NCBI GenBank assembly: GCA_964476405.1
Contig: CAYZCH010000027.1
Location: 1 to 35,607, forward strand
Direction: 5' to 3'
Length of the DNA stretch: 35,607 bases
From: an uncultured Desulfurococcales archaeon
GTDB lineage: Archaea > Thermoproteota > Thermoprotei_A > Sulfolobales > Pyrodictiaceae
Position 1 is the first letter of the stretch. Each line of letters opens with the position of its first letter. The notes below the pieces were generated by a model, which was not told the origin of the DNA, ran no database searches, and was given only the letters and a program-made list of their open reading frames with translations. Position numbers and translations under genes: made by a program. Shown here in pieces: positions 1-14,812 of this stretch.

Positions 1-2
1 AG

Positions 3-905
3 GCCGGCGCCGCCCAGCCCTGGCTCCTAAGCAGTATAGCAGCCGTGGCGTCCGCGTCACCACTCCTAACCGCCGCCTGCGGCTTCATAGTCGCGGGCTT
101 CAGTGTTAAGGCGGGCCTCTTCCCGGTCTACATGTGGCTCCCAGACGCCTACGCCGAGGCGCCCACGCCGGTCTCCGCGCTGCTCTCAGGCGCACTGACC
201 TACCTGCCGCTCTACGTGCTGCTACGCATACTCCACTGCCTGGCGCCGGCCTCGGGGAGGGCTGTGCTGATGCTCGCCGTCCTGGGGCTGGCGTCGATGC
301 TCTGCGGCGCCGCCGGGATGTATAGGACTGGCGACGCCAAACGCCTCTACGCCTACTCGAGCGTCGAGCACATGGGTGTACTCGCGTTCCTGGCCGCGGC
401 CGCGCTCGGGCTCGGAGCCCCCGAGGTGGCTTTGGCCGCCTTCAACCTCCACGCGATAGGCCACGCCGTCAGCAAGGCCGCAGCATTCGACTCGGCGGGC
501 TTCCTCGAGGAGAGGTACTCGCTGAGGAGCCTAAGCTCCCTCGACCCGGCCGTGGACAGGGTGGCTGGCTGGGGCCTCCTCGGCTTCACGGTGAGCCTCG
601 CCGGCATACCCCCGTTCCCGCTCTTCATAAGCGAGCTCCTCGGCGCCTTCAGCGTGGCCGGCAACGCCGTGCTCTTAACAGCATACATAGTATGCGTGTT
701 CGCCGCATTCACGGCCCTCGCCGTCAGGATCGGCGACATCTACTCCGAGAAGAAGGGCGACGAGGTCGCCCCCGTCAAGGCCCCAGGAGCTGCGGCGGCC
801 AAAGCCGCGATACTCCTCGCCGTGGCCCTCCTACTGGTGATCACACTCCTCTACCTCTCACCCCTCCACCTCCAGGCCCTACTAGCCGCCCCGCCGGGTG
901 CGTAG
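3..905 (+). CDS. Antiporter-like membrane subunit of a group-4 [NiFe]-hydrogenase/complex-I module (HycC/HyfB/CooM, NuoL/M/N family); 5' end lies outside the window
   Basis: The frame is open from base 3, with no stop upstream of the GTG at 45. The protein is very hydrophobic and carries FPVYMWLPDAYAEAPTPVSALLSG, typical of NuoL/M/N-HycC proteins. A HycD/NuoH-like gene follows 2 bp later. Confidence 0.8.
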   Translation, partial: AGAAQPWLLSSIAAVASASPLLTAACGFIVAGFSVKAGLFPVYMWLPDAYAEAPTPVSALLSGALTYLPLYVLLRILHCLAPASGRAVLMLAVLGLASMLCGAAGMYRTGDAKRLYAYSSVEHMGVLAFLAAAALGLGAPEVALAAFNLHAIGHAVSKAAAFDSAGFLEERYSLRSLSSLDPAVDRVAGWGLLGFTVSLAGIPPFPLFISELLGAFSVAGNAVLLTAYIVCVFAAFTALAVRIGDIYSEKKGDEVAPVKAPGAAAAKAAILLAVALLLVITLLYLSPLHLQALLAAPPGA

Positions 906-907
906 CC

Positions 908-1747
908 ATGCAGGCCCAGGAGCTAGCCCTACCCATAGTAGCGGCCGCGGTGACGCTGCTAGCCCCGCCCCTCATGGATGGGCTCAGGAGGAAGGTGTAC
1001 GCCTGGATCCAGCTGAGGGTTGGGCCACCGCTGCTGCAGACATGGTACGACCTAGCCAAGCTGTTCAGGAGGAGGACTACCATGCCGTCTACAGGGAACT
1101 GGCTGTACTACGCCGGCCCGGCCGCCGCACTGATAACGGTGCTCCTAGCAGCCGCGGACGCCGCCTCACCCAGCCTCTCAGCCGTCCTCGGGGGCGTCAT
1201 AGGCTTCTACATGCTGGTCGAGGCCTCCGTGGCCCTCCTAGTGCTCGGCTCCCTGGGGCTCACACCCTACACGAGCATAGGCGGGGTCAGGATGCTGGCG
1301 GTGTCTGGGGCCTCCGGGCTCGGCGTCCTCCTAGGGCTGGCGGGCTACGCGGCCATCAGCCATAACCCGGGGTGCCTGGCCGCCTTCGGGGTGCCGGCGC
1401 TGCCGGCGGCCGCCGCGCTCATCATCGCCGGCGTCGTCGAGCTCGAACTACCCCCCTACAACGTCGCCGAGGCAGGCCCAGAGATAGCCGCTGGCCCCTA
1501 CACGGAGTATCAGGGGCCGCTGCTGGCGGCCGCGCTCATGTCGTCGTGGGGTAGGGGGTACGCGCTGCTCCTCGCAGGCTATACGCTGCTGGCGGGCCCC
1601 CTTGCCGGCATCGCCGCCGCCCTCGCCACGCACGCCGCGTACAGCTTCGTGGCGGGCGTCACGGGGAGGCCTAGGCCGCTGAGGGCCGTGGGGCTGGCCG
1701 CGCTGAGCGTGGCCCTCGGGGCCGCGGCGCTGGCGCTCGCCGCCTAG
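908..1747 (+). CDS. Hydrogenase membrane subunit, HycD/CooK/EchB (NuoH-like)
   Basis: The ATG at 908 comes right after the upstream stop. The N-terminus LMDGLRRKVYAWIQLRVGPPLLQTWYDLAKLFRR matches the NuoH/HycD signature, and the protein is polytopic and hydrophobic. The 692-907 part of the listed ORF overlaps gene 1 and reads as Arg/Pro-rich junk. Confidence 0.8.
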   Translation: MQAQELALPIVAAAVTLLAPPLMDGLRRKVYAWIQLRVGPPLLQTWYDLAKLFRRRTTMPSTGNWLYYAGPAAALITVLLAAADAASPSLSAVLGGVIGFYMLVEASVALLVLGSLGLTPYTSIGGVRMLAVSGASGLGVLLGLAGYAAISHNPGCLAAFGVPALPAAAALIIAGVVELELPPYNVAEAGPEIAAGPYTEYQGPLLAAALMSSWGRGYALLLAGYTLLAGPLAGIAAALATHAAYSFVAGVTGRPRPLRAVGLAALSVALGAAALALAA

Positions 1748-2784
1748 CCGCCGAGCGTTTTCTTGACCTCAAGGTACCTCTTCACTATCGCCTCCCCGAG
1801 CGGGGTCAGTATAGTGTAGCCTCCTCCCCTGCCGCCGCGGTGGCCCTCGAGCAGCCTACCCCCTATCCTCTCCTCGATCTTCTTTATGGCCGAGGCTATG
1901 TATGATGGTTTCAGCCCGAGGGTCCTGCACGCCGCCCTCAGGCTGTGGAGCATTGACACCACCACGAGCACCTCCAGTACCTGCTCGGGTATCCTCACGC
2001 CGCCGCACTCTATCTCGACCCTCACCCTTATCGGTGGGAGGGCCTCCCTGCCGCCGTGGCTGCAGGGGGCGGAGGCTAGCCTGACGAGGTCGGTTATCTT
2101 CGCCCTCTCGAGTGGAACCCCCTGGCCCTGTGGGGCGGTCAGCGGGCACTTGTAGGCGGTGCAGCCGTCTATGTAGAGCTTCCTGCAGTTGTAGGGGCAT
2201 GGGGGCTCGAGCAGGGTGACCGCCCTGCCGCCGGCGTACGCCCTCCTCGCCGCGTAGCCGTACAGTAGGCCGAAGGGGAGGCCCACCCTGTCAAGCAGCT
2301 TCCTGGCCTCCGCGACCACCCTTGGGTCGAAGGGCTTGTAGAGCCTGGGTGCTACACGTATCCTGACGGGCAGCCCGTTGACCTCCAGCTGGGAGGCTAT
2401 CTCGACGCTCCTCTTAGCCTCGTCTATGGAGGTGTAGGCGTAGAGTATTGAGAGCTCCTCCACCCCCTGCTCGTAAAGCATCCTGAGCGACTCGACCGCC
2501 TCACCAAGGTTAGAGGAGGGGGTTAGGACTAGCAGAACCTCCGTGTTCGGCGCACCATAGGTCTTGACGAGGCCGGCGACCCTCCTCACCATGGACGGCG
2601 GCGTCGAGACGACAAGCTTCCTGCTAAGATCCGCCGCGAGCCTGAATACGCCGGGTGTCAGGTGCTCGGGGCTCCACTCGAGAACCAGCGTCTCCCTTGG
2701 GTAGAGGGAGTCGAGTACCTCCTCTAGCCAGTCCTCCCTCATGGGCGTCGTGATGCGGAGGATGAGGGTGTCGAGGGCCGGCAT
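1744..2784 (-). CDS. Putative CO-responsive transcription regulator (CorR-like): unknown N-terminal domain, Cys-rich segment, and C-terminal ModE/LysR-type winged HTH
   Basis: The C-terminus SMLHSLRAACRTLGLKPSYIASAIKKIEERIGGRLLEGHRGGRGGGYTILTPLGEAI fits the ModE-N/LysR HTH pattern. Cys residues lie at aa 196, 200, 208, 213, 241 and 260. The start abuts the V4R gene (ATG directly follows its TAA), and the gene sits next to cooFS. Confidence 0.6.
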   Translation of the reverse strand: MPALDTLILRITTPMREDWLEEVLDSLYPRETLVLEWSPEHLTPGVFRLAADLSRKLVVSTPPSMVRRVAGLVKTYGAPNTEVLLVLTPSSNLGEAVESLRMLYEQGVEELSILYAYTSIDEAKRSVEIASQLEVNGLPVRIRVAPRLYKPFDPRVVAEARKLLDRVGLPFGLLYGYAARRAYAGGRAVTLLEPPCPYNCRKLYIDGCTAYKCPLTAPQGQGVPLERAKITDLVRLASAPCSHGGREALPPIRVRVEIECGGVRIPEQVLEVLVVVSMLHSLRAACRTLGLKPSYIASAIKKIEERIGGRLLEGHRGGRGGGYTILTPLGEAIVKRYLEVKKTLGG

Positions 2785-3375
2785 TTACGCTGCCCTCACT
2801 ACCACCATGAACTGGCAGTAGGGGTCTCCCCTCAGCCAGCAGCTAGTCTCCCTGACTGTCGGTGCTGCACGCATCACGGACTCGACGAGGTACTCTATTA
2901 TGCCGGCCTCCCACTCGCACATAGTCCCCCCTATGCCTATGGAGGGGGTGAGCCCGCTGCAGGATAGGCAGTCGTAGACCCTGAATATGCACCTACCCCT
3001 CCTGCAGCCGAGGAAGTCGAAGAGGCCTATACCCCTCCTCGCGAGCTCGATCCCCGCCTCGACGAAGTCGTCGATGGGGCCGAGGGTCTTCTCAGCATAC
3101 ACGTACCCTGCCCTCCTGACCAGCATCCTGCCGAGGACGGGGTCCGCCATGTATAGTGTGACTAGAAGCCTCCTGTGCGCGGCTGTGACCGCCTTGTCGC
3201 TGGCGCCGTGTATCCTCTGCGCGAAGAACGCCCTCGGCTTCAAGCCGCCGAGCCTCCTAGGATCCTTCACCCTCCTCCACTTCTCCACAGCCTCCCTGAA
3301 CTCCCCCCTACCCACCCTGTACTCCACGTCATCGACTATCTTCTCGAAAAGCCTTATCTTATCGGCTGTATGCAC
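2785..3375 (-). CDS. V4R (4-vinyl reductase) domain protein, CorQ-like sensor partner
   Basis: The C-terminal half YDCLSCSG...MCEWEAGIIEYLVESV...VRETSCWLRGDPYCQFMVVV matches the V4R pattern (E-x-x-C-x-x-x-G-D-x-x-C-x-F). It has a GTG start, is divergent from cooF, and is tightly coupled to the downstream HTH gene. Confidence 0.65.
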   Translation of the reverse strand: MHTADKIRLFEKIVDDVEYRVGRGEFREAVEKWRRVKDPRRLGGLKPRAFFAQRIHGASDKAVTAAHRRLLVTLYMADPVLGRMLVRRAGYVYAEKTLGPIDDFVEAGIELARRGIGLFDFLGCRRGRCIFRVYDCLSCSGLTPSIGIGGTMCEWEAGIIEYLVESVMRAAPTVRETSCWLRGDPYCQFMVVVRAA

Positions 3376-3425
3376 GTCCCATACCCCACAGTAGCTATAC
3401 GTTTCGCTAGGTGAAGATAAAGCTT

Positions 3426-3458
3426 ACCATTATCTCCATGCATCTATGGTCAACCATG
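3426..3458. promoter_or_regulatory. Candidate operator: phased CCAT/ATGG repeats with two overlapping palindromes
   Basis: ACCAT lies at 3426, CCATG at 3436, ATGGT at 3446 and ACCATG at 3453, spaced about one helical turn apart. ATGGT-CA-ACCAT spans 3446-3457 and CCAT-N6-ATGG spans 3436-3449. The element sits in the corQ/cooF divergent intergenic region. Confidence 0.4.
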
Positions 3459-3508
3459 CTCGTCTACGTCGACGGGCCTCGTATACATTAGGTGGTTAAC
3501 TCGACCCG

Positions 3509-3516
3509 ATTATAAG
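3509..3516 (+). promoter_or_regulatory. TATA box for cooF-cooS (near-leaderless transcript)
   Basis: ATTATAAG is centred about 29 bp upstream of the GTG at 3542, within an AT-rich patch of an otherwise GC-rich sequence. Confidence 0.5.
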
Positions 3517-3541
3517 TATTCAAGAGTCCACAACCTACACG

Positions 3542-4105
3542 GTGTGGCTAGTGGCTCCAGCGACACGTGCACAGTACATCATCTACATCGACTACGAGAG
3601 GTGCACTGGCTGTAGGAGCTGCGAGATAGCCTGCGCCGTCGCCCACTCAGCCACCAAGAGCATCTACACGGCGCCTAGGGAGAAGCCTAGGCCGAAGCCG
3701 AGGATAAGGGTGTTCAGGGTCGGGGAGCTGAACGTGCCGATGAGGTGCCTCCACTGCGCCAACGCCCCATGCGTCCGCGTCTGCCCGACAGGCGCGATGC
3801 ACTACACCGAGGAGGGCTTCGTCGTGGTCGACGAGGTCAAGTGTATAGGCTGTGGCCTCTGCACCCTCGTCTGCCCCATAGGGCACCCATACGTGGACCC
3901 GGAGACCGGGAAGGCTGTGAAGTGCACGTTCTGCTACAAGCGTATACGTGAGGGGAGGCTGCCGGCCTGCGTCGAGGCGTGCCCCGTCGACGCGCTGATC
4001 TTCGGCAAGACGAGCGAGGTGCTCGAGGAGGTCAGGGCCAGGAAGGCCTCCGTCCTAGCCCAGGCCTACCTCCTGGGGAGGGACATCCTCCCCAGCCCAG
4101 CCTAG
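3542..4105 (+). CDS. cooF: CooF-type iron-sulfur electron-transfer protein (4x[4Fe-4S] ferredoxin-like)
   Basis: It carries four Cys clusters: CTGCRSCEIAC, CLHCANAPCVRVCP, CIGCGLCTLVCP and CTFCYKRI...CVEACP. It lies directly upstream of cooS. Confidence 0.85.
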   Translation: MWLVAPATRAQYIIYIDYERCTGCRSCEIACAVAHSATKSIYTAPREKPRPKPRIRVFRVGELNVPMRCLHCANAPCVRVCPTGAMHYTEEGFVVVDEVKCIGCGLCTLVCPIGHPYVDPETGKAVKCTFCYKRIREGRLPACVEACPVDALIFGKTSEVLEEVRARKASVLAQAYLLGRDILPSPA

Positions 4106-4109
4106 ACCC

Positions 4110-6032
4110 GTGCCCGGGAGGTGTGCCCCCGTGAAGTCCCCCAAGTCCCTCAGGATAAAGCCGGAGGACGTCACGACCGTCAAGGGCCTTGACAAGCTCA
4201 TATACAAGGCTGAGGAGGAGGGCGTCGAGCTAGCCTGGCACAGGTTCATGAAGCAGCAGCCCCAGTGCGGCTTCGGCCTCCTAGGGATATGCTGTAGGAA
4301 CTGCGCTATGGGGCCGTGCAGGATCAACCCGTTCGGCGGCGAGCCAAGCAGGGGCGTCTGCGGGGCCACCGCCGACACTATAGTGGCGAGGAACCTCATT
4401 AGGATGATAGCGGCTGGCGCCGCCGCGCACAGCGACCACGCCAGGGACATACTCTACGTGTTCCGCGACGTGGTGTGGGGTAGGAACAAGGCGTACAAGA
4501 TAACCGACCCGGAGAAGCTCAAGTGGGTGGCGGGCAAGCTGGGGGTCAAGGTAGTCGGCCGCAACATCATGGAGATCGGCAGGGACGTCGCCGCGATACT
4601 GGAGAAGGAGTTCGGTAAGCAGGACGAGGAGCCCTTGGCGCTCGTGAAGGCGCTGGCGCCGAAGAAGAGGCTGGCGGTGTGGATGAAGGCCGGGATATGC
4701 CCGAGGAACATAGACAGGGAGATAGTAGAGATAATGCACCGCACCCACATGGGTGTAGACGCTGACCCCGTCAGCCTCATAGCACAGGGCGCCAGGGCGG
4801 CGCTGGCCGACGGCTGGAGCGGCTCGATGATGGCCACCCTCCTAAGCGACATAATGTTCGGCACCCCGAAGCCCGTCAAGGCCGTAGCCAACCTGGGTGT
4901 ACTGAAGGAGGACTACGTCAACATCATAGTGCACGGCCACAACCCGCTGCTATCAATGAAGATAGTGGAGGCCGCGATGAGCAAGGAGATGCAGGAGCTA
5001 GCGAGGAAGTATGGGGCTAAGGGAGTCAACGTGGCCGGCATGTGCTGCACGGGGAACGAGGTGTTGATGAGGCTCGGCGTACCAATAGCAGGGAGCATGC
5101 TTATGCAGGAGCTAGCAATAGTTACGGGGGCCGTTGAAGCCGTGGTAGCCGACTACCAGTGTATAATGCCTGCGCTAGTCACCGTCGCCCAGTGCTACCA
5201 CACCAAGCTCATAACCACGGAGAAGAAGGCGAAGATACCGGGGGCGCTACACATAGAGTTCGACCCCGCGAGGGCGGACGAGTGCGCCAGGGAGATAGTG
5301 AGGATAGCGATTGAGAACTACCAGAACAGGGTGCCCGAGAAGGTGTTCATACCGAAGGAGAAGGTGGAGCTGGTGGCGGGCTTCAGCGTCGAGGCAATAC
5401 TCGCCGCCCTAGGCGGCACCCTCAAGCCGCTCGCCGACGCGCTGAGGTCGGGAGTGATAAAGGGTGTCGTCGGCATAGTGGGCTGCAACAACCCGAAGGT
5501 CAAGCACACCTACGGCCACGTCGAGCTGACAAAGGAGCTCATAAAGAGGGACATACTGGTAGTCGGCACAGGCTGCTGGGCGATAGCCGCCGCCCTCCAC
5601 GGCCTCCTCACGCCGAAGGCCGCCTCGATGGCAGGGCCCGGCCTGCGCAGGCTATGCAGCAAGCTCGGCATACCGCCAGCGCTACACATGGGCAGCTGCG
5701 TCGACTGCAGCCGCATGCTCCTGCTCCTCGGCATGCTGGCCGACGAGCTAGGCGTCGACATCTCAGACCTCCCGGTGGCCGGCTCGGCCCCGGAGTGGAT
5801 GAGCGAGAAGGCCGTGAGCATAGGAACCTACTTCGTCGCGAGCGGGGTACTGGTGCACCTCGGAGTCGTGCCGCCAGTGCTGGGGAGCGAGAAGGTCACG
5901 AAGATACTGACCGAGGATCTCGAGTCCATAGTAGGGGCAAGGTTCTACGTCGAGACGGACCCGAAGAAGGCCGCCGAGTACATAGCCGAGTACATCGAGG
6001 AGAAGAGGAGGAAGCTGGGCTGGCCCGCCTAA
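4110..6032 (+). CDS. cooS: Anaerobic Ni,Fe carbon monoxide dehydrogenase catalytic subunit
   Basis: The N-terminus has QPQCGFGLLGICCRNCAMGPCRI (B/D-cluster region). The length is about 635 aa and CooS-like sequence runs throughout. The more likely start is the GTG at 4131, 8 nt after GGAGGTG. Confidence 0.9.
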   Translation: MPGRCAPVKSPKSLRIKPEDVTTVKGLDKLIYKAEEEGVELAWHRFMKQQPQCGFGLLGICCRNCAMGPCRINPFGGEPSRGVCGATADTIVARNLIRMIAAGAAAHSDHARDILYVFRDVVWGRNKAYKITDPEKLKWVAGKLGVKVVGRNIMEIGRDVAAILEKEFGKQDEEPLALVKALAPKKRLAVWMKAGICPRNIDREIVEIMHRTHMGVDADPVSLIAQGARAALADGWSGSMMATLLSDIMFGTPKPVKAVANLGVLKEDYVNIIVHGHNPLLSMKIVEAAMSKEMQELARKYGAKGVNVAGMCCTGNEVLMRLGVPIAGSMLMQELAIVTGAVEAVVADYQCIMPALVTVAQCYHTKLITTEKKAKIPGALHIEFDPARADECAREIVRIAIENYQNRVPEKVFIPKEKVELVAGFSVEAILAALGGTLKPLADALRSGVIKGVVGIVGCNNPKVKHTYGHVELTKELIKRDILVVGTGCWAIAAALHGLLTPKAASMAGPGLRRLCSKLGIPPALHMGSCVDCSRMLLLLGMLADELGVDISDLPVAGSAPEWMSEKAVSIGTYFVASGVLVHLGVVPPVLGSEKVTKILTEDLESIVGARFYVETDPKKAAEYIAEYIEEKRRKLGWPA

Positions 6033-6037
6033 GGCAG

Positions 6038-6044
6038 TCTTTTT
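6038..6044 (+). terminator. Oligo-T tract after cooS (archaeal-type termination signal)
   Basis: TCTTTTT begins 6 nt after the cooS TAA stop. It is followed by a TGTACA-N8-TGTACA hairpin at 6059-6078 and a gap of about 128 bp before cooC. Confidence 0.4.
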
Positions 6045-6160
6045 CCCCTCCAAACTCCTGTACATTAGTTGATGTACACGGCTGAAGCACGTGTAGATGC
6101 TCCTCCATCGCTAGCTCGGCTTATCCGAGGGTGCCGTGTTTAGGGTCTAGAGATGGGTGG

Positions 6161-6994
6161 ATGGTTATCCGGCAGGAGCCCTTCAAGATAATAGTTGCCG
6201 GTAAAGGGGGAGTCGGTAAGACGACGGTCAGCGCCTCGCTGGCGATCATGCTCGCCAAGAGGGGGCATAGGGTAGTCGCTCTCGACACAGACTCGGTTCC
6301 AAACCTTGCCCTGAGCCTAGGCATCCCGCCGGAGGAGGCTTCGAGGATAACCCCCCTGGTCGAGAACACTGAGCTCGTCGAGGAGAGGACTGGGGCCAGG
6401 CCTGGAGGGGGGTGGGGGCTCCTCTTCACCCTCACGCCCAGGGTCGACGACATACTCGACAGGTACGGTGTCGAGGCCAGGCATGGGGTTAGGCTGGTCG
6501 TTGTCGGGGGTATAACGAAGCCTGGTGAGGGGTGCCTCTGCCCCTCCATAGCCCTCGCCAAGGCGTTCCTCGCGCACGTGTTCAGGAGCTTTGAGGGCGT
6601 AGTGATAGTCGACTCGGAGGCGGGCGCGGAGGTGTTCGGTAGGGGGCTGGCCGAGTACTTCGACCTCATGGTGGCGGTCTCGGAGCCCACCGTGAGGAGC
6701 CTCTCGATAACCAGGAGGCTCATAGAGCTGGCGAGGGGGCTGAGCGTTAAGAGGTTCGTCGTGCTGCTGAACAAGGTGAAGGACGAGCTGGCCGCCAAGA
6801 AGCTCTACGAGAAGGTGATGGGCGACCTAGGCGTCCCCGTGTTCACAGCCCCCTACGACCCTGTACTTGAGGAGTACGAGTCGAGGGGCTTGAGCGTGGC
6901 CGATCTCCCGGACGACTCGGAGCTCTTTTTAGCATTATCCAGCCTCGTCTCCTATATAGAGTCCCTGGTCAAGGGGGAGGGTAGGCGTGTGTGA
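6161..6994 (+). CDS. cooC: CooC-type Ni-insertion ATPase (MinD/ParA-class P-loop) for CODH maturation
   Basis: It has IIVAGKGGVGKTT (deviant Walker A) and the Cys-x-Cys metal motif EGCLCPS. The ATG at 6161 gives a canonical N-terminus, although the ORF is open from the GTG at 6131. Confidence 0.85.
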   Translation: MVIRQEPFKIIVAGKGGVGKTTVSASLAIMLAKRGHRVVALDTDSVPNLALSLGIPPEEASRITPLVENTELVEERTGARPGGGWGLLFTLTPRVDDILDRYGVEARHGVRLVVVGGITKPGEGCLCPSIALAKAFLAHVFRSFEGVVIVDSEAGAEVFGRGLAEYFDLMVAVSEPTVRSLSITRRLIELARGLSVKRFVVLLNKVKDELAAKKLYEKVMGDLGVPVFTAPYDPVLEEYESRGLSVADLPDDSELFLALSSLVSYIESLVKGEGRRV

Positions 6995-7184
6995 GTCGAA
7001 GATAGTCGTCAGGAGGGATTCGGGGGAGGAGGTGCTGGCCGACGAGGTCGCGGCCCTGAAGCCCGGGGAGGCCAAAGCCTACCTGGTTGACGGGAGAGTG
7101 GTCGACCTGAGCGGCTACACCATAGAGTTGATAGACTTCATCAGGCACCGCGTCTACGTTAAGCCCGCCGGGGGGAGATCCTAG
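6987..7184 (+). CDS. cooT: CooT-family small nickel-binding CODH accessory protein
   Basis: The 65-aa product starts Met-Cys (MCESKIVV...) and ends ...IELIDFIRHRVYVKP. This resembles the CooT pattern, with an N-terminal Cys2 Ni ligand and a C-terminal IDxxxHxI motif. The gene overlaps cooC by 8 nt. Confidence 0.7.
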   Translation: MCESKIVVRRDSGEEVLADEVAALKPGEAKAYLVDGRVVDLSGYTIELIDFIRHRVYVKPAGGRS

Positions 7185-7187
7185 GCT

Positions 7188-8783
7188 TTGATAGACCCGC
7201 CGATGGGGGAGCTGAAGGCCCTCCTAGACCTGGTCGGGCTCGGGGGGCGCTGCAGGGAGGCTGGGGGAGGCCTGGTCTACTGCCGCGCCCCGCCGGGCGA
7301 GGGGCTCCGCGCAGCCGTGAGGCTCCACGAGGACACCGGCTGTAGGCTGACCACGTGCCTGGCCTACGACTATAGGCTCGTTGACGGCTCCTTCCACGTA
7401 GTATACGTGTTCGACTGCCCGAGGCTCGGGAGGTACATAGACGTAGACATAGCCCTCAGCGACTCGAGCGCCGAGTCGCTCGCAGCCCTTATAGACTCCA
7501 TGCAGTGCACGTGGTGCGAGTGGGAGGCGAGAGACCTCTACGGTATACGGTTCAGGGGGCACCCGGGTAGGGGGAGGCTCATACTCCCCGACTCCTGGCC
7601 GGAGGACTACCACCCGTTGAGGAAGGATGCGCCGAGGAGGCCGCCCTCCCCCGTCAGCCAGGCGCCGAGGAGGCTGCGGGGCCCGGGTATGCCGCTGGGC
7701 CCGTACCACCCGGCGCTCCATGAGCCGGAGTACTTCGAGCTTGAGGTCGAGGGGGAGAGGGTAACCGGCGTCAGGTACCGTGGCTTCTTTGTTTATCGTG
7801 GTATTGAGAAGCTTGCTGAGGATAGGTTTGGTTTTATGCAGGTGCCGTTCCTGGCTGAGAGGATATGCGGTATATGCGGCTGCGTGCACTCATCATCATA
7901 CTGCAGGGCCGTCGTGATCGCTCTAGGCGTGGAGCCGCCCGAGAAGGCTAGGTATGTGCGTACACTGCTCCTGGAGCTGGAGAGGATACACAGCCACCTA
8001 CTATGCACGGCTGTCATGCTTCACGCAGCCGGCTACGACACGGGATTCATGCAGCTGATGGGGCTCAGGGAGGAGGTGATGTCGGTGGCCGAGCTGTTGA
8101 CAGGCAACAGGAAGACCTACTCAGCCAACATACCGGGCGGGGTGAGGGTTGAGGTCGACAGGGACAGGGCTAGGGGCTGTGTTGAGAGGGCGGCGGCCGC
8201 CGCCCTGAAGGCGGTGAAGCTGGCCAGGAGCTTCCTCGACGTCTCCGAGGTCTACACGAGGCTCAGCGGAGTGGGCGTGTTGAGCAGGGAGGATGCGTGG
8301 AGGCACGGCGCCCTCGGCCCCGTCGCCAGGGCCTCCGGGATAGACGTCGACGTGAGGAGGGATCACCCGTACGCGGCCTACGGGGAGGTCGAGTTCGAGG
8401 TACCCGTAATGGATGAAGGGGACGCCCTCGCAAGATACCTGCTCCGGCTAGAAGAAGTCGAGCAATCGGTCAGGATACTCAGGCAGGTGGCCTCCTCCCT
8501 CCCGGAGAAGGGCGCCTGGAGGACTGAGCCCCCCTACGAGGAGCTAAGGGTGGGGCAGGCGGCCTCGGAGGCCCCGAGGGGTGAGTGCATACACTACGTC
8601 ATCACGGGGCCCCATGGGAGGCTCTGGAGGTGGAAGGTGAGGGCGCCGAGCTACAACAACATACCGCTCCTCAGCCTCATGCTCAAAGGCTACACGGTTG
8701 CAGACGCCCCCGTCATAATCTCCAGCATAGACCCATGCTTCTCATGCACAGACCGCGTAGCCGTGGTGGTGAGGCGTGGGTAG
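7188..8783 (+). CDS. Group-4 [NiFe]-hydrogenase large subunit fused to an N-terminal NuoC/CooU-like domain (HycE-type architecture)
   Basis: The N-terminal Ni-binding motif RICGICGCVH lies at 7860-7889 and the C-terminal motif DPCFSCTDR at 8730-8756. The first ~165 aa carry the NuoC-like LYGIRFRGHPGRGRLILPDSWPEDYHPLRKD. The start is the TTG at 7188 or the ATG at 7203. Confidence 0.9.
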   Translation: MIDPPMGELKALLDLVGLGGRCREAGGGLVYCRAPPGEGLRAAVRLHEDTGCRLTTCLAYDYRLVDGSFHVVYVFDCPRLGRYIDVDIALSDSSAESLAALIDSMQCTWCEWEARDLYGIRFRGHPGRGRLILPDSWPEDYHPLRKDAPRRPPSPVSQAPRRLRGPGMPLGPYHPALHEPEYFELEVEGERVTGVRYRGFFVYRGIEKLAEDRFGFMQVPFLAERICGICGCVHSSSYCRAVVIALGVEPPEKARYVRTLLLELERIHSHLLCTAVMLHAAGYDTGFMQLMGLREEVMSVAELLTGNRKTYSANIPGGVRVEVDRDRARGCVERAAAAALKAVKLARSFLDVSEVYTRLSGVGVLSREDAWRHGALGPVARASGIDVDVRRDHPYAAYGEVEFEVPVMDEGDALARYLLRLEEVEQSVRILRQVASSLPEKGAWRTEPPYEELRVGQAASEAPRGECIHYVITGPHGRLWRWKVRAPSYNNIPLLSLMLKGYTVADAPVIISSIDPCFSCTDRVAVVVRRG

Positions 8784-9291
8784 GGCTACAGCACTCCTCA
8801 CAGCCCTGAGGCTCGGGAGACTGACCACCAGGTACCCCTACCAGCCGTCGCCAGCCCCACCCGAGTACCGCGGCCCCCCAGTGTTCCTCGAGGACAGGTG
8901 CGTCGGCTGCGGAGCCTGCATGTATGCGTGCCCGGCGCAGGCCATAAGCGTGAGGTATGAGGAGTCCGACGACATAGTCGTCCTCGAGCACAGTGTAGCC
9001 AGGTGCATCTTCTGCATGTTCTGCGCCGATACGTGCCCGCATGGAGCCATAGTGAAGACCAACATCTATGAACTGGCCACAGACAACCCCAGGGACCTCA
9101 TACAGAGGGTCGAGCACAGGCCAGCCCACTGCGCCGACTGCGGCGAGGCATACTCCACGCTCAGGGCGGTCTCGAGGGCGGCTGAGGGGGCCGGGGGGCT
9201 GCAACGCTACATGCTCCGCTGCCCGGCCTGCAGGGCCCGAGGCGTAGCCGAGGTGATAGCGTCCTCGAGGAGGGGTGGCCTGGTTGCCTAG
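8776..9291 (+). CDS. Hydrogenase 2x[4Fe-4S] ferredoxin subunit (HycF/CooX/NuoI-like)
   Basis: It has CVGCGACMYACP and CIFCMFCADTCP, plus a C-terminal CADCG...CPACR pair like that in E. coli HycF. It overlaps the large-subunit stop. Confidence 0.85.
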   Translation: MGRATALLTALRLGRLTTRYPYQPSPAPPEYRGPPVFLEDRCVGCGACMYACPAQAISVRYEESDDIVVLEHSVARCIFCMFCADTCPHGAIVKTNIYELATDNPRDLIQRVEHRPAHCADCGEAYSTLRAVSRAAEGAGGLQRYMLRCPACRARGVAEVIASSRRGGLVA

Positions 9292-9760
9292 GAGGAGGAG
9301 CCTCTGGGTCTACCACGTGAACACCGGTGGCTGCAACGGGTGCGACATAGAGCTCCTCGCAGCCCTAAGCCCTGTCTACGACCCGGAGAGGTTCGGCGTC
9401 AAGCTCGTAGAGTCGCCGAGGCACGCGGACGCCTTCGTCCTCAGCGGCCCGGTGACCGTGCAGAGCCTCCCGAGCGTGCTGGAGGCGTTCAGGGTCGGCA
9501 GGCCGGAGGCCGTGGTGGCGCTCGGCTCCTGCGCCTGCGGCGGCGGCATATGGCACGACAGCGCGGCAGTCCTAGGAGGCATAGACCCGCTGCTCAAGCT
9601 GCTCGAGGAGGAGGGGATCCCCAGGCCTAGGGTTATACGCGTGCCTGGCTGCCCGCCGAGGCCCCACGCGATACTCTACGGGGTCGCAGTCCTCCTCGGC
9701 CTCGCCGAGGTGAAGGCAGCCAAGCTCCTGGCGGAGGCGAGGCAAGCGGCTAGGATTTAA
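9275..9760 (+). CDS. Group-4 [NiFe]-hydrogenase small subunit (HycG/CooL/NuoB-like)
   Basis: It carries the NuoB-family proximal cluster ligands NTGGCNGCDIE, GSCACGGG and VPGCPPRP. Confidence 0.9.
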   Translation: MAWLPRRRSLWVYHVNTGGCNGCDIELLAALSPVYDPERFGVKLVESPRHADAFVLSGPVTVQSLPSVLEAFRVGRPEAVVALGSCACGGGIWHDSAAVLGGIDPLLKLLEEEGIPRPRVIRVPGCPPRPHAILYGVAVLLGLAEVKAAKLLAEARQAARI

Positions 9761-9850
9761 AAGGCTCCCTCCCAGAGCACCCTTGGGATGCACATAGAGT
9801 GGCCCCGGGAGAGCCTTGGAGGGTGATGTGGGCTGCCGCGTGAACCCGAG

Positions 9851-10291
9851 GTGGAGTATAAGTATATTGTACGCATAGCCGCGACGGACATACCCGGAGA
9901 CCTGAAGGTACCCTACGGCCTAGCAATGATAAAGGGCGTGGGCTACAACCTGGCCCTGGCGCTGTGCAGGCTCCTCGGCATAGACCCGAACAAGAGGATA
10001 GGGTTCCTCACAGACGCCGAGATCGCGAGGCTCGAGGAGGCGATAAAGAACCCGAGGGCTGTCGGTGTACCCTCCTGGATGCTTAACAGGAGGAAGGACT
10101 ATGAGACCGGCAGGGACATGCACCTCGTCGGAGCCGACCTGATATACTACGTGAGGAGGGACATCGAGAGGGAGAAGAGGATTAAGAGCTGGAGGGGTAT
10201 ACGCCACGCCCTCGGCCTCAAGGTCAGGGGCCAGAAGACTAGCCGTACTGGGCGCCTCGGCGTGACAGTCGGCGTGTCGAAGAGGAGGTGA
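9851..10291 (+). CDS. rps13: 30S ribosomal protein S13 (uS13)
   Basis: It has [31 protein letters not shown] and [17 protein letters not shown], and it heads the conserved S13-S4-S11-RpoD block. Confidence 0.95.
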
Positions 10292-10296
10292 CGGCC

Positions 10297-10812
10297 ATGG
10301 GTGACCCGAAGAAGCCCCGTAAGAAGTGGGAGAGCCCCAAGCACCCCTGGATAAAGGAGAGGCTGCTCAGAGAGATAGAGCTCATGGGCCGCTACGGGTT
10401 GAGGAACAAGAAGGAGATATGGAAGGCCGAGACGATGGCTAGGAGGGTGAGGCACCGCGCCAGAGCACTCCTAGCCCTCCCGCCCGCGATAAGGGAGGCT
10501 GAGGAGAGGAGCCTCCTGCACAGGCTGATACAGCTCGGAGTCCTCCCCGAGAACGCGACGCTCGACGACGTGCTGGGCCTCACAGCCGAACACTTCCTCG
10601 AGAGGAGGCTCCAGACCATAGTCTACAAGAAGGGGCTTGCAAGGACACCCCACGAGGCGAGACAGCTCATAGTCCACGGCCACATAGCGATAGGGGGTAG
10701 GAGGGTGCGCTCCCCAGGCTACCTGGTCAAGAAGGAGGAGGAAGACCTCGTAGACTACGCCCCCACAAGCCCCTACTTCAAACGCAGGCTCGAGGCCGCC
10801 CAGCAGGCCTAG
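10297..10812 (+). CDS. rps4: 30S ribosomal protein S4 (uS4)
   Basis: The product begins [18 protein letters not shown]. The ATG lies 8 nt after GGAGGTGA, and the ORF listed from 10288 includes 3 extra codons. Confidence 0.95.
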
Positions 10813-10829
10813 GCCAGGGGTGAGGAGCC

Positions 10830-11228
10830 GTGTTCTCCGCGAGGGAGATCAAGTGGGGCGTCGCCCACATATACTCGAGCTACAACAACACTATAATCCA
10901 CATAACCGACCTCACCGGAGCCGAGACCTTCGCCAGGATAAGCGGGGGGATGGTGGTCAAGGCGGACCGTGAGAAGCCCTCACCCTACGCCGCCATGATG
11001 GCGGCCGCGAGGGCTGCCCAGCAGGCAATGGAGAAAGGGATAATGGCGATACATATAAAGGTGAGGGCGCCGGGCGGCCACGGCCCAAAGACGCCGGGGC
11101 CGGGCGCGCAGGCCGCCATAAGGGCGCTCGCCAGGAGCGGCTTCATAATAGGGAGGATAGAGGACGTCACACCACTACCACACGACACGACCAGGAGGCC
11201 CGGCGGCCGCAGGGGTAGGAGGCTCTGA
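10830..11228 (+). CDS. rps11: 30S ribosomal protein S11 (uS11)
   Basis: It has [18 protein letters not shown] and [15 protein letters not shown]. Confidence 0.95.
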
Positions 11229-11267
11229 GGCCCCTCCCGGGCCGCCACCCCCGCGAGGTGTATTGTT

Positions 11268-12125
11268 TTGGGTAGGAGTATCAGGCTCCTCGAGGAGGGC
11301 AAGTATAGGCTCAGGCTGCTGGTCGAGGGCTACCCCCTACCCCTAGTCAACTCTGTGAGGAGGGCGTGCTTCACCGAAGTCCCCGTCATGGCTATAGATA
11401 TTGTCGAGTTCATCGAGAACAACACCGTGTTGTACGACGAGATAATAGCGCATAGGCTCGGACTGATACCGTTGACCAGCGAGGAGGCGCTGAGCCGGTA
11501 CGACCCCCCCGAGAAGTGCAGGGACGCCCCCCTCGAAGACACCCGCTGCTACGCCGTCCTCACACTAGAGGTTCACACCACGAAGACGGAGCCGCAGAGG
11601 ATTGTCTACAGCGGCGACCTCCAGCCAGAGGACCCGGACGTGAGGCCCGTCTACCCCAATATACCGATAGTAGTCATGGCCCAGCAGCAGAGGCTCAGGC
11701 TGCAGGCATACGCGAGGCTCGGGTACGGGAAGGAGCATGCCAAGTGGATACCAGTAACCGTCGCCGCCCACAAGTACCTCCCAGTGCTCAGCTTCGACCT
11801 CGGGAAGCCAGGCGCAGAGGAGTGTGTCAGGTGCATCGAGCAGGCCTACCCCTCGATAGCGGAGAAGATGAGGGAGATGGGTAAGGGGAGCATAGAGGTA
11901 GTAGACGACGTGAACACATCCGCCCTCTACTGGTGCGTCAACAAGAAGTGTGGTGAGGCGGCTAGCCTCAACTATATGCAGGACAGGCTGATACTGACCA
12001 TAGAGACTACAGGCTCCCTAACAGCCCGCAGAGTCCTCTTGAAGGCCGTGGAGGCGGTCGAGGCTAAGGCTAAGAAGCTCCTGGAGGAGGTTGAAGCACT
12101 TAAAACCGGGAACGAGCAGGGCTAG
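11268..12125 (+). CDS. rpoD: DNA-directed RNA polymerase subunit D (Rpo3)
   Basis: It has LVNSVRRACFTEVPVMAIDIVEFIENNTVLYDEIIAHRLGLIPL, and four Cys (CVRC...CVNKKC) consistent with the archaeal subunit-D Fe-S domain. The TTG start lies 7 nt after GAGGTG. Confidence 0.9.
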   Translation: MGRSIRLLEEGKYRLRLLVEGYPLPLVNSVRRACFTEVPVMAIDIVEFIENNTVLYDEIIAHRLGLIPLTSEEALSRYDPPEKCRDAPLEDTRCYAVLTLEVHTTKTEPQRIVYSGDLQPEDPDVRPVYPNIPIVVMAQQQRLRLQAYARLGYGKEHAKWIPVTVAAHKYLPVLSFDLGKPGAEECVRCIEQAYPSIAEKMREMGKGSIEVVDDVNTSALYWCVNKKCGEAASLNYMQDRLILTIETTGSLTARRVLLKAVEAVEAKAKKLLEEVEALKTGNEQG

Positions 12126-12145
12126 GGCAAGGGGTGCGCGCCTGA

Positions 12146-12517
12146 ATGCAGGCAGTCAAGAGGACTGGGCCTACCAACATAGTGCTCCGTAAGACGCTGA
12201 GGAGGCTGAGGAGCCAGGCCAGGAGGGAGAACGCCCCAATATGGCGCTACGTATACGAGCTCTTGTCGAGGCCGAGGAGGCTCAGAATAGTCGTCAACCT
12301 GTCAAAGATAAACAGGCATACGAGGCCCGGAGACGTGGTCGTCGTGCCCGGCAAGGTGCTGGGGGCAGGCACCATAGACCACCCGGTCACCGTCGCCGCC
12401 GCCGCGTTCTCATACACGGCGGTGAGGAAGATAAGGGAGGCCGGGGGGAGGGTTCTACACATAACGCAGCTCATGGAGGAGAACCCGAGGGGGTCGGGGG
12501 TCAAGATAATAATCTAG
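12146..12517 (+). CDS. rpl18e: 50S ribosomal protein L18e (eL18)
   Basis: The assignment rests on the KRTGPTNIVLRKTLRRL N-terminus and the conserved position after rpoD. Confidence 0.9.
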   Translation: MQAVKRTGPTNIVLRKTLRRLRSQARRENAPIWRYVYELLSRPRRLRIVVNLSKINRHTRPGDVVVVPGKVLGAGTIDHPVTVAAAAFSYTAVRKIREAGGRVLHITQLMEENPRGSGVKIII

Positions 12518-12530
12518 GAGGGTGTGCGCG

Positions 12531-13013
12531 ATGGTGGTAGAGGTCGAGCCCCCCAAGCCGCCCGCTAGGATGCTCGTCGTCGACGCGGAGGGCCAGATAC
12601 TTGGGAGGATGGCGAGCATAGTGGCTAAGAAGCTGCTCGAAGGCTACAGGGTAGTGATAGTGACCGCCGAGAAAGCGGTCGTCAGCGGAGACCCGCTCAT
12701 GGTCATAGAGAGCTACCAGAAGCTCCTAGGAGTCAAGGTGCACGTCAACCCCTACAAGTGGGGGCCTAGGAGGCCGAGGGATCCGAGGTGGATAGTGAGG
12801 GATGCCGTCGAGGGCATGCTCCCCAGGTGGAAGGAGCAGGGGAGGAGGGCGGCGAAGAGACTGAAGGTATACATAGGCGTCCCGAAGGAGTACGAGAAGG
12901 CCGAGAAGGTGAAGTTCCCTGAGGCCGACTACAGGAGGCTGGGGCACAAGTTTATACTTGTAGGCGAGATTGCACGCGCAATGGGATGGAAGGGGGTGGC
13001 TGAGAAGCCTTGA
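12531..13013 (+). CDS. rpl13: 50S ribosomal protein L13 (uL13)
   Basis: It has VVDAEGQILGRMASIVAKKLLEG. The ATG at 12531 follows GGAGG, and the ORF is open from the GTG at 12522. Confidence 0.9.
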   Translation: MVVEVEPPKPPARMLVVDAEGQILGRMASIVAKKLLEGYRVVIVTAEKAVVSGDPLMVIESYQKLLGVKVHVNPYKWGPRRPRDPRWIVRDAVEGMLPRWKEQGRRAAKRLKVYIGVPKEYEKAEKVKFPEADYRRLGHKFILVGEIARAMGWKGVAEKP

Positions 13014-13063
13014 GCGAGGCCGCGCAGGGGCAGGGAGCCGGCGGCCAGGAAGTAAGGGTGTTG

Positions 13064-13504
13064 ATGGCTAAGGCCGTCGAGGCCCCGACCAGGAGGGGGA
13101 AGATAAGGATAGTTATAGCGACCGGTAAGAGGAAGACCGCGGTGGCGAGGGCCGTCATAAAGCCGGGGAAGGGCAGGGTGTGGGTCAACGGTGTACCCAT
13201 AGAGCTCTGGCCCGTAGAGATGGCGAGGCTCAAGATGATGGAGCCGCTGCTCCTCGCCGGCAGGGAGATATGGGGGAGCGTCGACATCAGGGTGAACGTG
13301 AAGGGCGGGGGGTACATGGCGCAGGCGGACGCAGTCAGGATGGCTATAGCGAGGGGCCTAGTGGCGTACACGGGGAGCCAGCAGCTGAAGGACATCTACG
13401 AGCAGTTCGACCGCTCAATGATAGCCGGCGACCCGAGGCAGACGGAGCCGGAGAAGCCGATGAGGAGGGGTGCGAGGAGGAGGTGGCAGAAGAGCTACAG
13501 GTGA
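13064..13504 (+). CDS. rps9: 30S ribosomal protein S9 (uS9)
   Basis: It has [23 protein letters not shown] and the C-terminal RRRWQKSYR. The start is uncertain, since the ORF is open from the TTG at 13010. Confidence 0.9.
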
Positions 13505-13511
13505 GGAGGCC

Positions 13512-13712
13512 GTGATAATCCCTGTAAGGTGCTACACGTGCGGGGCCCCGATAGCGAGGTACTGGGAGGAGTTCGCCAGGAGGGTTAAGGCTGGGGAGGA
13601 GCCGGGCAAGGTGCTGGACGACCTAGGGGTTAGGAGGCTCTGCTGCCGCCGCATCCTCCTAGCCCATGTCCCCCTGATACACGAGGTGACAAGGTTCAAG
13701 AGGATACTCTAG
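13512..13712 (+). CDS. rpoN: DNA-directed RNA polymerase subunit N (Rpo10)
   Basis: The 66-aa product begins [15 protein letters not shown] and contains [13 protein letters not shown], the zinc-binding pattern of RpoN/RPB10. The GTG follows GAGGAGG. Confidence 0.9.
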
Positions 13713-13724
13713 CCGGGTGGAGAG

Positions 13725-14360
13725 GTGGTCGCCTTGGCCGAGCAGGGCGGTGGAGTAATAGAGCTCCTGGTCCCGCTCGAGACGTACCTCTCAGCGGGAG
13801 TCCACATAGGCACGCACATATGCACCAAGTACATGGAGCAGTTCGTGTACAGGGTGAGGCCGGACGGCCTATACGTGCTCGACATAAGGAGGGTTGATGA
13901 GAGGATAAGGGTGGCGGCGAAGTTCCTAGCGAGGTTCCCCCCGGAGAAGATAGTGGCCGTGTCCGTGAGGCAGTACGGCTGGAAGCCCGTCCAGAAGTTC
14001 TGCAGCTACATAGGCTGCAAGATGCTGACGGGGAGGATACTCCCGGGCACCTTCACGAACCCCGCGCTCGAGTGGTACCTCGAGCCCGAAGTCATAGTGG
14101 TCACAGACCCGAGGTCGGACAGCCAGGCGATAGACGAGGCGGGCCGCATGGGGATACCCGTGGTCGCGCTCGCAGACACGGACAACAAGATAGAGAACCT
14201 AGACCTGATAATACCCTGCAATAATAAGGGCAGGAGGAGCCTCGCGCTCGTATACTGGATACTGACCAGGCAGGTGCTGAGGGAGAAGGGGCAGCTCGCC
14301 CCAGACCAGGATCTACCCGAGCCCCCCGAAGCCTTCGAGTTCAAGCCCAGGAGGAGGTGA
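13725..14360 (+). CDS. rps2: 30S ribosomal protein S2 (uS2)
   Basis: It has [34 protein letters not shown] and [11 protein letters not shown]. Confidence 0.95.
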
Positions 14361-14366
14361 CCCCCC

Positions 14367-14606: not shown

Positions 14607-14613
14607 CGCCGGC

Positions 14614-14799: not shown

Positions 14800-14812
14800 G
14801 GGGTGTAGGGCC

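Follow-up and report, generated by a model that had tools for sequence, protein, structure and literature searches.

Carbon monoxide (CO)-driven proton reduction is among the lowest-energy respirations, and the energy conserved in it depends on the membrane arm of the hydrogenase. Here, the gene clusters known for this reaction are compared with a locus at positions 1-9760 of contig CAYZCH010000027.1, a contig of 35.6 kb from a metagenome-assembled genome (MAG) of an uncultured Desulfurococcales archaeon, essentially the whole of which forms the window; the locus carries genes of a nickel CO dehydrogenase (Ni-CODH) and a group 4 [NiFe] hydrogenase. In Rhodospirillum rubrum and Carboxydothermus hydrogenoformans, the hydrogenase genes cooMKLXUH accompany cooFSCTJ and are regulated by CooA; the hydrogenase belongs to group 4c, with an unfused large subunit, CooH, of about 360 amino acids (aa) and a separate NuoC-like subunit, CooU. 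These systems share with the window locus the overall reaction and the accessory logic of cooF, cooS, cooC and cooT, but differ in the unfused CooH with its CooU, in their membrane subunits and in the use of CooA. A second type is the CODH-hydrogenase-Mnh cluster with the regulators CorQ and CorR of Thermococcus onnurineus and Thermococcus sp. AM4, which belongs to group 4b of HydDB. It is represented in our comparison by locus L015 of an uncultured Thermococci archaeon, where all genes are co-directional and contiguous, in the order corQ-corR-cooF-S-C-T-hycC-hycD-hycE-F-G, followed by seven mnh genes. The window and its close relatives (the window clade) likewise have corQ, corR, cooF, cooS, cooC, cooT, a fused large subunit and HycF- and HycG-like parts, but their membrane genes lie upstream, corQ and corR are inverted, and a HyfD/B/E/F/C-like arm stands in place of HycC and HycD. 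In addition, genes of the small Mnh subunits were not found in the DNA fetched for the clade.

Furthermore, the subunits of Escherichia coli hydrogenase-4 (hyfABCDEFGHI, formate hydrogenlyase-2, group 4a) correspond one to one to those of the window clade, whose membrane genes show 40% identity to HyfD, 26-30% to HyfB, 32-37% to HyfE, 35-40% to HyfF and 28-30% to HyfC/HycD. The E. coli enzyme differs in its donor, which is formate dehydrogenase H and not a Ni-CODH as predicted in the clade, and the clade order (D-B-E-F-C, the CODH module, G-H-I) is unlike that of E. coli hyf. In the korarchaeal locus L021:205-12493 (Candidatus Methanodesulfokora washburnensis, Korarchaeia), cooF-cooS-cooC stand by a Hyf-type set of HyfD-, B-, C-, E- and F-like genes and a fused large subunit, and its CooS is 69-70% identical; the pairing of a CODH with a Hyf-type membrane arm is thus not confined to the window clade. 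In this locus, however, cooFSC come first and an uninterrupted block of hydrogenase genes follows, in an E. coli-like B-C-E-F order with HycF and HycG last, and no corQR matches were found in the 10 kb fetched. A group 4b cluster with cooS has also been reported in a Desulfurococcaceae genome (PMC11467010).

The coupling of a CODH to a formate hydrogenlyase-like hydrogenase and CorQR regulators is thus already known from Thermococcus, and the chemistry and function predicted for the window locus are of a known kind, well supported by homology. The original prediction, made from the window sequence, had read the locus as a CO-hydrogen-lyase on a formate hydrogenlyase-like chassis; homology supports that reading, but it is not new in view of the Thermococci type, L021 and PMC11467010. 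New against the systems compared is, first, where the CO module and the inverted regulator pair lie: a conserved, clade-specific position with the Hyf-type membrane arm on one side and the genes of the peripheral arm on the other. New as well are the lack of an Mrp module in the DNA fetched around the locus and the existence of colinear and unlinked variants.

Gene order and its conservation in one clade

Genes in the window were called from a listing of open reading frames (ORFs) together with Pfam and NCBIfam profile searches, and all eleven genes of the original prediction were found at, or a few codons from, their predicted positions. The features of the locus are as follows.

1-905 (frame from base 3), plus strand: 3' part of a HyfF-like, antiporter-like membrane subunit (NuoN/M-type); Pfam PF00361 Proton_antipo_M, 1.3e-31
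908-1747, plus strand: HyfC/HycD-like NuoH-type membrane subunit, predicted to dock the peripheral arm; Pfam PF00146 NADHdh, blastp
1744-2784, minus strand: corR-like regulator of 346 aa; Pfam HTH_1 at residues 270-331
2785-3375, minus strand: corQ-like V4R-domain protein, first gene of the divergent corQ-corR unit; Pfam V4R, 2.1e-10
3376-3541, no strand: corQ/cooF intergenic region of 166 bp, putative divergent promoter region; AT-box scan
3542-4105, plus strand: cooF, ferredoxin with four [4Fe-4S] clusters; Pfam Fer4_11, four Cys motifs
4131-6032, plus strand: cooS, catalytic subunit of Ni-CODH; TIGR01702, Pfam Prismane 5.8e-187
6033-6160, no strand: cooS-cooC spacer, candidate partial terminator (oligo-T at 6040-6044); conservation of the T-run
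6161-6994, plus strand: cooC, Ni-insertion ATPase; Pfam CbiA, P-loop and CLC motif
6987-7184, plus strand: cooT-like small Ni chaperone; Pfam CooT, 26.1 bits (cut-off 27)
7188-8783, plus strand: [NiFe] hydrogenase large subunit, NuoC-NuoD fusion of HycE/HyfG type; Pfam PF00329, PF00346 and PF00374
8776-9291, plus strand: HycF/HyfH-like subunit with two [4Fe-4S] clusters; NCBIfam PRK12387, formate hydrogenlyase Fe-S subunit, 2.2e-33
9275-9760, plus strand: HycG/HyfI-like small subunit (NuoB type); Pfam PF01058 Oxidored_q6

The CO module does therefore lie between membrane-arm and catalytic-arm genes, as had been proposed. The profiles also confirm the gene identities except for the first one, which is HyfF-like and not HycC-like, so that the flanks do not follow the hycC-D-E-F-G order originally claimed: the left flank reads hyfF-hyfC-like, and the full arm of the relatives hyfD-B-E-F-C-like.

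When proteins were searched with the large subunit, eleven clusters at 52-100% identity stood out as close, the window's own included; beyond them, the score falls from 601 to 528 bits. For 85 large subunits, a tree was built by neighbour joining (100 bootstraps), with the best 80 GTDB species-representative loci and E. coli HycE and HyfG among them. Here the window, L001, L003, L004, L005 and L007 are monophyletic with 100% bootstrap, inside the archaeal Thermococci/Desulfurococcales radiation and with the E. coli proteins as a distant outgroup. Synteny, mapped by tblastn and from called-gene tables, places the interleaved order with opposite-strand corR and corQ in five lineages: the window; L001 with L092; L004/L088; L005/L090; and L095/L096, where L095 bears the label Pyrodictium sp. 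The loci stem from different samples and from NCBI MAG, JGI and Logan assemblies, and in four assemblies the convergent stops of hyfC and corR overlap by the same 4 nucleotides (nt), at window 1744-1747, L092:2472-2475, L095:2194-2197 and L096:1039-1042. As the order recurs in independent assemblies with the same overlap, it is due neither to chance nor to a chimera. The idea that a chimeric MAG contig or a mis-assembly joins unrelated loci could draw on the window being a metagenome-assembled contig that ends inside hyfF, but the hyfC/corR and corQ/cooF junctions recur, at 58-80% protein identity, across the NCBI MAG, JGI and Logan contigs and the window is syntenic with L001 over 16 kb, so that it can practically be dismissed.

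The interleaved order is shared at 58-79% large-subunit identity and is thus old. As an inherited trait, it marks a single small clade of uncultured Desulfurococcales/Pyrodictium-like archaea. Positions 1-17962 of the window are syntenic with L001/L092 at 80-83% nucleotide identity, including the S13 operon beside hycG. Between window and L001, ribosomal proteins are 95-100% identical, CooF and CooS 97-98%, the large subunit 79%, CorR 76%, HycF 74% and CooT 72%. A recent transfer of cooFS between the two lineages was considered as the source of this gap and rejected, since CooS is the slowest-evolving protein clade-wide (81% vs 61%) and stronger constraint explains it. In L004 and L005, the cluster was observed in different genomic surroundings.

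Among the best 80 GTDB species-representative loci, all CODH-linked loci outside the clade keep the hydrogenase genes contiguous, in agreement with what had been expected of other CODH-hydrogenase loci. L014, L015, L019, L028, L034 and L052 have the order corQ-corR-cooF-cooS-cooC(-cooT)-hycC-hycD-hycE-hycF-hycG-mnh, and in L060 and L074 cooCFS are divergent from the hydrogenase genes; Thermofilum carboxyditrophus was not among the best 80 loci of the genome scan. No description of the interleaved order was found in the literature, the search being incomplete and the result therefore an absence of evidence only.

Within the clade, two further arrangements were found. In two lineages (L003/L089 and L093/L094), a colinear variant consists of one co-directional ten-gene operon, hyfD-B-E-F-C, a cooF-like gene, a CooS-like gene and hycE-F-G, without corQR, cooC and cooT. 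The CooS-like genes lie at L003:7639-9282 (also in L089), L093:7558-8898 and L094:5204-6463. The protein of L003 is complete (547 aa) and keeps all Cys residues of the B-, C- and D-clusters, but it has lost the segment with the C-cluster His and carries Arg in place of both the acid-base His and the Lys; the His-to-Arg change is also seen in the truncated copies of L093 and L094. It reaches 200 bits on TIGR01702 (cut-off 478) and is still closest to Thermococcus-type CODH. L003 comes from the same MAG as L001, which holds the canonical copy, and its CooS-like protein is therefore a paralogue. Only Ni-CODH groups with complete motifs have been found to co-occur with [NiFe] hydrogenases (PMC6344411), and the L003-type protein, judged by its residues, would be an exception to this pattern. 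The MAG of L001 and L003 holds the peripheral arm twice, and a separate membrane arm seems to go with each copy (in L003 itself, and in L092 for the L001 type). In the second arrangement, assembly GCA_964615085.1 carries a five-gene Hyf-type arm (L091:6062-14063) followed by an amino-acid kinase and a phage-type integrase, not by corR and corQ, and on another contig cooC, the large subunit, hycF and hycG (L007:1-3864).

The predicted enzyme and its components

It is probable that the locus, taken as a whole, encodes a CO-oxidising, H2-evolving, ion-translocating membrane complex of Ni-CODH and group 4 [NiFe] hydrogenase. From the genes we infer the following activity and electron path. CooS would oxidise CO, with water giving CO2 and H2 overall, and the electrons would pass through the four clusters of CooF and the HycF- and HycG-like Fe-S subunits to the NiFe site, where the HycE-type large subunit would reduce protons. 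The peripheral arm is predicted to dock on the HyfC-like subunit and the HyfD-, B-, E- and F-like arm, through which the small free energy could be turned into an ion gradient, while CooC and CooT would load nickel into CooS.

In regard to the CODH module, the cooS ORF opens at 4110, with a likely start at GTG 4131 behind GGAGGTG, and CooS scores 749.9 bits on TIGR01702 against a cut-off of 478. Among solved CODHs it matches 6t7j end to end with 1037 bits, followed by CODH-IV (725), the Desulfovibrio vulgaris (699) and R. rubrum (600) enzymes and CODH-II (585); 6t7j is presumably the CODH of Thermococcus sp. AM4. Aligned with its relatives, CooS keeps all ligands of the D-, B- and C-clusters (for the C-cluster, one His and five Cys) as well as the acid-base His and Lys, and in alignments with the solved CODHs the ligand residues are identical, which disposes of the concern that C-cluster ligands might be lacking. 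The positions were mapped to the residue numbers of the C. hydrogenoformans enzyme. The CooS of T. onnurineus belongs to structural group E-1 (PMC6344411), and given this and the best solved match 6t7j, the CooS of the window is, by its match scores, probably of the clade-E type. Clade-F CooS, as in R. rubrum and C. hydrogenoformans, and not clade E, accompanies the classical CooH hydrogenases (PMC6344411).

CooF has four 4Fe-4S motifs and 27-29% identity to E. coli HycB and HyfA, and is the only HycB/HyfA-type ferredoxin seen in the window. The cooC ORF spans 6131/6161-6994, with ATG 6161 as likely start, and its product has the P-loop GKGGVGKT and the metal motif GCLCP, so that the P-loop and CXC motif of the nickel chaperone are both present. 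CooT begins with Met-Cys-Glu (MCE) and thus has the N-terminal Cys2; its Pfam score lies 0.9 bits under the cut-off, and the L004 orthologue is listed with CooT.

The hydrogenase large subunit is a 531-aa fusion of NuoC-like and NuoD-like parts (PF00329 and PF00346), and its best match among solved structures is E. coli HycE (7z0s_E, 3e-101, 343 bits), ahead of the Pyrococcus membrane-bound hydrogenase (2e-61, 211 bits). Both nickel CxxC motifs, RICGICG (C227, C230) and DPCFSC (C517, C520), are invariant in 12 sequences. By these motifs, which separate true group 4 [NiFe] hydrogenases from Nuo/Mbs homologues, the protein is predicted to be a true hydrogenase. It stops 8 residues past DPCFSCTDR (VAVVVRRG; window 8760-8783). 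In E. coli HycE, an extension of 32 residues is cleaved during maturation, and several large subunits of the clade are 20-30 residues longer overall than that of the window.

An ordinary CooH-type locus of group 4c is suggested by the presence of cooF, cooS, cooC and cooT. It is excluded by the NuoC fusion and by HycE as the best solved match: the fused large subunit and the Hyf-like membrane subunits are not the 4c architecture. Furthermore, the regulators are CorQR-like rather than CooA, and CooS is nearest to the Thermococcus enzyme and not to the R. rubrum or CODH-I/II types, which leaves hardly any probability to group 4c and answers, on architecture and best solved match, the earlier question whether the large subunit nests among CooH proteins.

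Within group 4, the large subunit and the membrane arm point in different directions. In blastp, the former is 46% identical to the Thermococci type and 38% to E. coli HyfG/HycE, and outside the clade it comes nearest to sequences of Thermococci/Desulfurococcales, at 44-52% identity; in the tree, a long branch sets the E. coli sequences apart as outgroup, so that the clustering with enterobacterial HycE/HyfG expected of group 4a is not seen. The group 4a subunit set, with homologues of HyfB, C, D, E, F, G, H and I and a HyfA-like ferredoxin, is on the other hand complete in L088 and L090, and the window itself holds only the F (partial), C, G, H and I homologues and CooF. The large subunit may thus be called 4b-like by its nearest neighbours, without the local Mrp linkage after which 4b is named, and the membrane arm 4a/Hyf-like. 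The HycG-like subunit is 45% identical to E. coli HycG and 55% to its Thermococci homologue (blastp), and the HycF-like one 38% to the Thermococci homologue.

In the left flank, the product of 3-905 is 40% identical to E. coli HyfF, with "hydrogenase 4 subunit F" as its best NCBIfam match, and full-length homologues in L088, L090 and L092 have 474-487 aa. The NuoH-type ORF opens at 692, with ATG 908 as the likely start of a 279-aa protein (homologues, 276-302 aa). In the complete relatives L088 and L090, a five-gene membrane arm matches HyfD, HyfB, HyfE, HyfF and HyfC/HycD, in that order; the three further membrane genes, upstream in these relatives, are lost from the window at the contig end. 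Judged by homology, the chassis is Hyf-type (E. coli hydrogenase-4-like) in composition, with CooF in place of HyfA/HycB.

As to other donors, no formate dehydrogenase gene was found in the annotated parts of the window (Pfam on 9851-12125 and ten ORFs between 20.7 and 33.7 kb), and the unannotated middle stretch is syntenic with L001, whose called genes include none. The claim that neither HycB nor a formate dehydrogenase occurs downstream stands for these annotated parts. For Mrp, the six small Mnh subunits of L015 were searched against 11 window-clade sequences including the window; they match L034, a Desulfurococcales CODH locus, but 0 of the 11.

Regulators and transcription units

All interleaved loci have a V4R protein and a protein with a LysR-type helix-turn-helix (HTH) adjoining cooFS, and this pair is homologous, at 27-32% identity (tblastn), to the regulators upstream of cooF in Thermococci/Desulfurococcales loci. 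CorQR has been reported as a CO-responsive regulator pair of Thermococcus (PMC13077300), and by analogy CorQR may mediate CO induction in this clade. CorQ has a Cys-rich V4R domain, the Cys-rich part being its C-terminal half. A homologue search with CorR matched seven clade members only, and its AlphaFold 2 model (pLDDT 84.7) has a C-terminal winged helix of LysR/ModE type, with LysR DNA-binding domains among its fold matches. For the N-terminal alpha/beta domain, the best fold matches are weak and are to radical-SAM/TIM-barrel proteins (7vob, E 9.5e-5, TM 0.41). CorR is not a classical LysR protein, as its HTH is C-terminal and its N-terminal domain models as a barrel-like fold.

Since corQ-corR lies on the opposite strand between plus-strand blocks, the locus must comprise at least three transcription units, at least two of them separate on the plus strand, as the prediction of separate transcripts for the membrane and catalytic arms requires. 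The units would be the membrane arm, the divergent corQ-corR, and cooF-cooS-cooC-cooT-hycE-F-G, the last transcribed from the 166-bp corQ/cooF region and possibly terminated in part after cooS. In the window, the palindromic CTAG provides the stops of both hyfC and corR and leaves no room for terminators between these two units. In the third unit, cooC and cooT overlap by 8 nt, hycE/F and hycF/G overlap as well, and the gap between cooT and the large subunit is 3 nt, which suggests coupled translation.

Of all AT-rich boxes in the first 10 kb, the strongest, GATTATAAGTATT at 3508-3520, was found by an AT-box scan 22-34 nt before the GTG of cooF. It would fit an archaeal TATA box with a nearly leaderless cooF transcript, and GTAACTCGA lies just upstream of it. 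GTAACTCGA and a TATA-like box recur in L001/L092 and L090/L005 within otherwise unalignable DNA, and are not clearly present in L088 or L095. Right after the cooS stop (window 6040-6044), a run of T5-T7 followed by a C-rich stretch is kept in five loci (window, L001, L088, L090, L005) of four lineages; in the window, the first 10.4 kb contain just one other T5 run, and the spacer of about 130 nt has no other clearly conserved feature. This oligo-T is a plausible candidate for a partial terminator, which would raise cooFS transcripts over those of the downstream genes. A structured RNA in the spacer was rejected, as its fold is no better than that of shuffled sequences (z 0.63) and no Rfam match was found, either there or in a scan of the whole window. 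The second T5 run (6926-6930) and a TATATAGA box (6953-6960) are inside the 3' end of cooC, the box 27-34 nt before the cooT start, and an additional promoter within the unit, serving cooT and the hydrogenase genes, could lie at 6926-6960.

A CorR operator was sought as a motif shared by the corQ/cooF intergenic regions and the promoter regions of the membrane arm, in L088, L090, L091, L089 and L093. GTGTTCTAG occurs in both regions of L088, and words resembling CGTGTTC recur in L090 and L091. A shared operator is not claimed, as the chance of a shared 9-mer was estimated at about one in five and the word is absent from the window and L001.

It could also be supposed that the membrane-arm operon is not dedicated to this hydrogenase, being instead a separate module shared between the canonical and the CooS-like arms, or an independent antiporter-like complex whose adjacency is incidental. 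The separate transcription unit, the oppositely oriented regulators between the halves and the unlinked genes of L091 and L007 in one MAG speak for it. However, the catalytic unit lacks a NuoH-type docking subunit of its own, the adjacency with the same 4-nt junction is kept in four assemblies, the two-copy MAG appears to give each peripheral copy its own arm, and the colinear variant holds all ten genes in one operon, so that we regard such an arm as quite improbable.

Several points nevertheless weigh against the reading of the locus as a CO-driven, ion-translocating hydrogenase. All members of the clade are uncultured MAGs or metagenome contigs, and the placement of the large subunit comes from a neighbour-joining tree without reference sequences for groups 4b to 4i. 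The truncated membrane arm of the window leaves its promoter beyond the contig end, and the arm appears unlinked from the catalytic genes in one MAG (L091 and L007), which weakens the assumption that both always work together. The Mrp module is absent from the window and from the DNA fetched around the clade loci, and neither hyp nor maturation-protease genes were found in the annotated parts of the window. Finally, the CorR of the window clade is only 28-32% identical to the Thermococci type and lacks the N-terminal CX3CX2C motif of these proteins (e.g., L015:2261-3376), having four invariant Cys instead (C196, C200, C213, C241).

Possible histories of the interleaved order

The original wording, in which the CO module is spliced into the hydrogenase operon, presents one of two possible histories as though it were demonstrated; the present evidence does not choose between an insertion of the module and a relocation of the membrane genes. 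According to the first history, a pre-existing Hyf-type operon took up a CO cassette that brought its own regulators, corR and corQ, directed away from cooF-S-C-T. The cassette would have entered between hyfC and the gene of the large subunit and would have put the catalytic arm under a CO-responsive promoter. A single insertion would explain the order, and different origins of the two parts are suggested by the membrane-arm proteins, which outside the clade are closest to bacterial HyfF-type proteins, and by CooS, which is 72-75% identical to that of archaeal Thermococci/Desulfurococcales loci (tblastn). The membrane arm can also stand alone by an integrase, as in L091. However, neither an uninterrupted hyfDBEFC-GHI operon without CODH inside the clade nor a cassette of divergent corRQ and cooFSCT elsewhere was found, and the colinear variant (L003, L093) has cooF and the CooS-like gene in the same slot without regulators. 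The tight junctions, among them the CTAG overlap and the 3 nt from cooT to the large-subunit gene, point to an old arrangement whose direction is unreadable. An insertion is a tentative account, possible rather than probable.

Alternatively, the ancestor could have been a contiguous cluster of Thermococci/korarchaeal type, corQR-cooFSC(T)-membrane-hycEFG, from which the membrane genes moved upstream while corQR was inverted. The colinear variant would then be a later duplicate that lost corQR and cooCT and in which CooS degenerated. Outside the clade, the large subunit, CooS, CooF, CooC, CorQ and CorR are all nearest to contiguous archaeal clusters, korarchaeal L021 already joins cooFSC to a Hyf-type arm, and the degenerate CooS-like protein is closest to Thermococcus-type CODH and shares a MAG with a canonical copy. 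This history needs at least two rearrangements, and the sister relation of the window clade to the clade with CODH upstream has only 10% bootstrap; it, too, is possible rather than probable.

Whatever the history, a CODH and a regulator pair of Thermococcus type are combined in this clade with a Hyf-type arm of five subunits, and the genes are split into a membrane unit and a regulator-controlled peripheral unit. If the split reflects separate regulation or assembly, it would offer a natural system for the question of how complex-I-like modules are made and matched. In the furthest-reaching form, which we consider unlikely, the Hyf-type membrane module and the CO-sensing peripheral module would be independently regulated, separable units, with the membrane arm made constitutively or shared with the CooS-like paralogous arm and the peripheral arm made only on CO, and the clade would be an undescribed, Mrp-less, Hyf-type, CODH-coupled subgroup of archaeal group 4. 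If so, nature would here provide an example of a complex-I-like enzyme assembled from modules. The clade also adds candidates for hydrogenogenic carboxydotrophy among Pyrodictium-like Desulfurococcales.

The annotated surroundings of the locus are of a housekeeping nature. The genes of S13, S4, S11 and RpoD follow directly after the hycG-like gene, as the predicted adjoining ribosomal-protein operon had implied. GATTTAAAAG at 9754-9763 overlaps the hycG stop, about 90 nt before the S13 start, with no T-run between hycG and S13, and is a candidate promoter of that operon. The annotated parts of the remaining window include a class I/II aminotransferase, a phosphate-transporter-like ABC system and an integrase-family gene. 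The latter, a tyrosine recombinase (phage-integrase family) at 30128-31060 amid housekeeping genes, may be a XerA-type chromosome resolvase rather than a marker of a mobile element.

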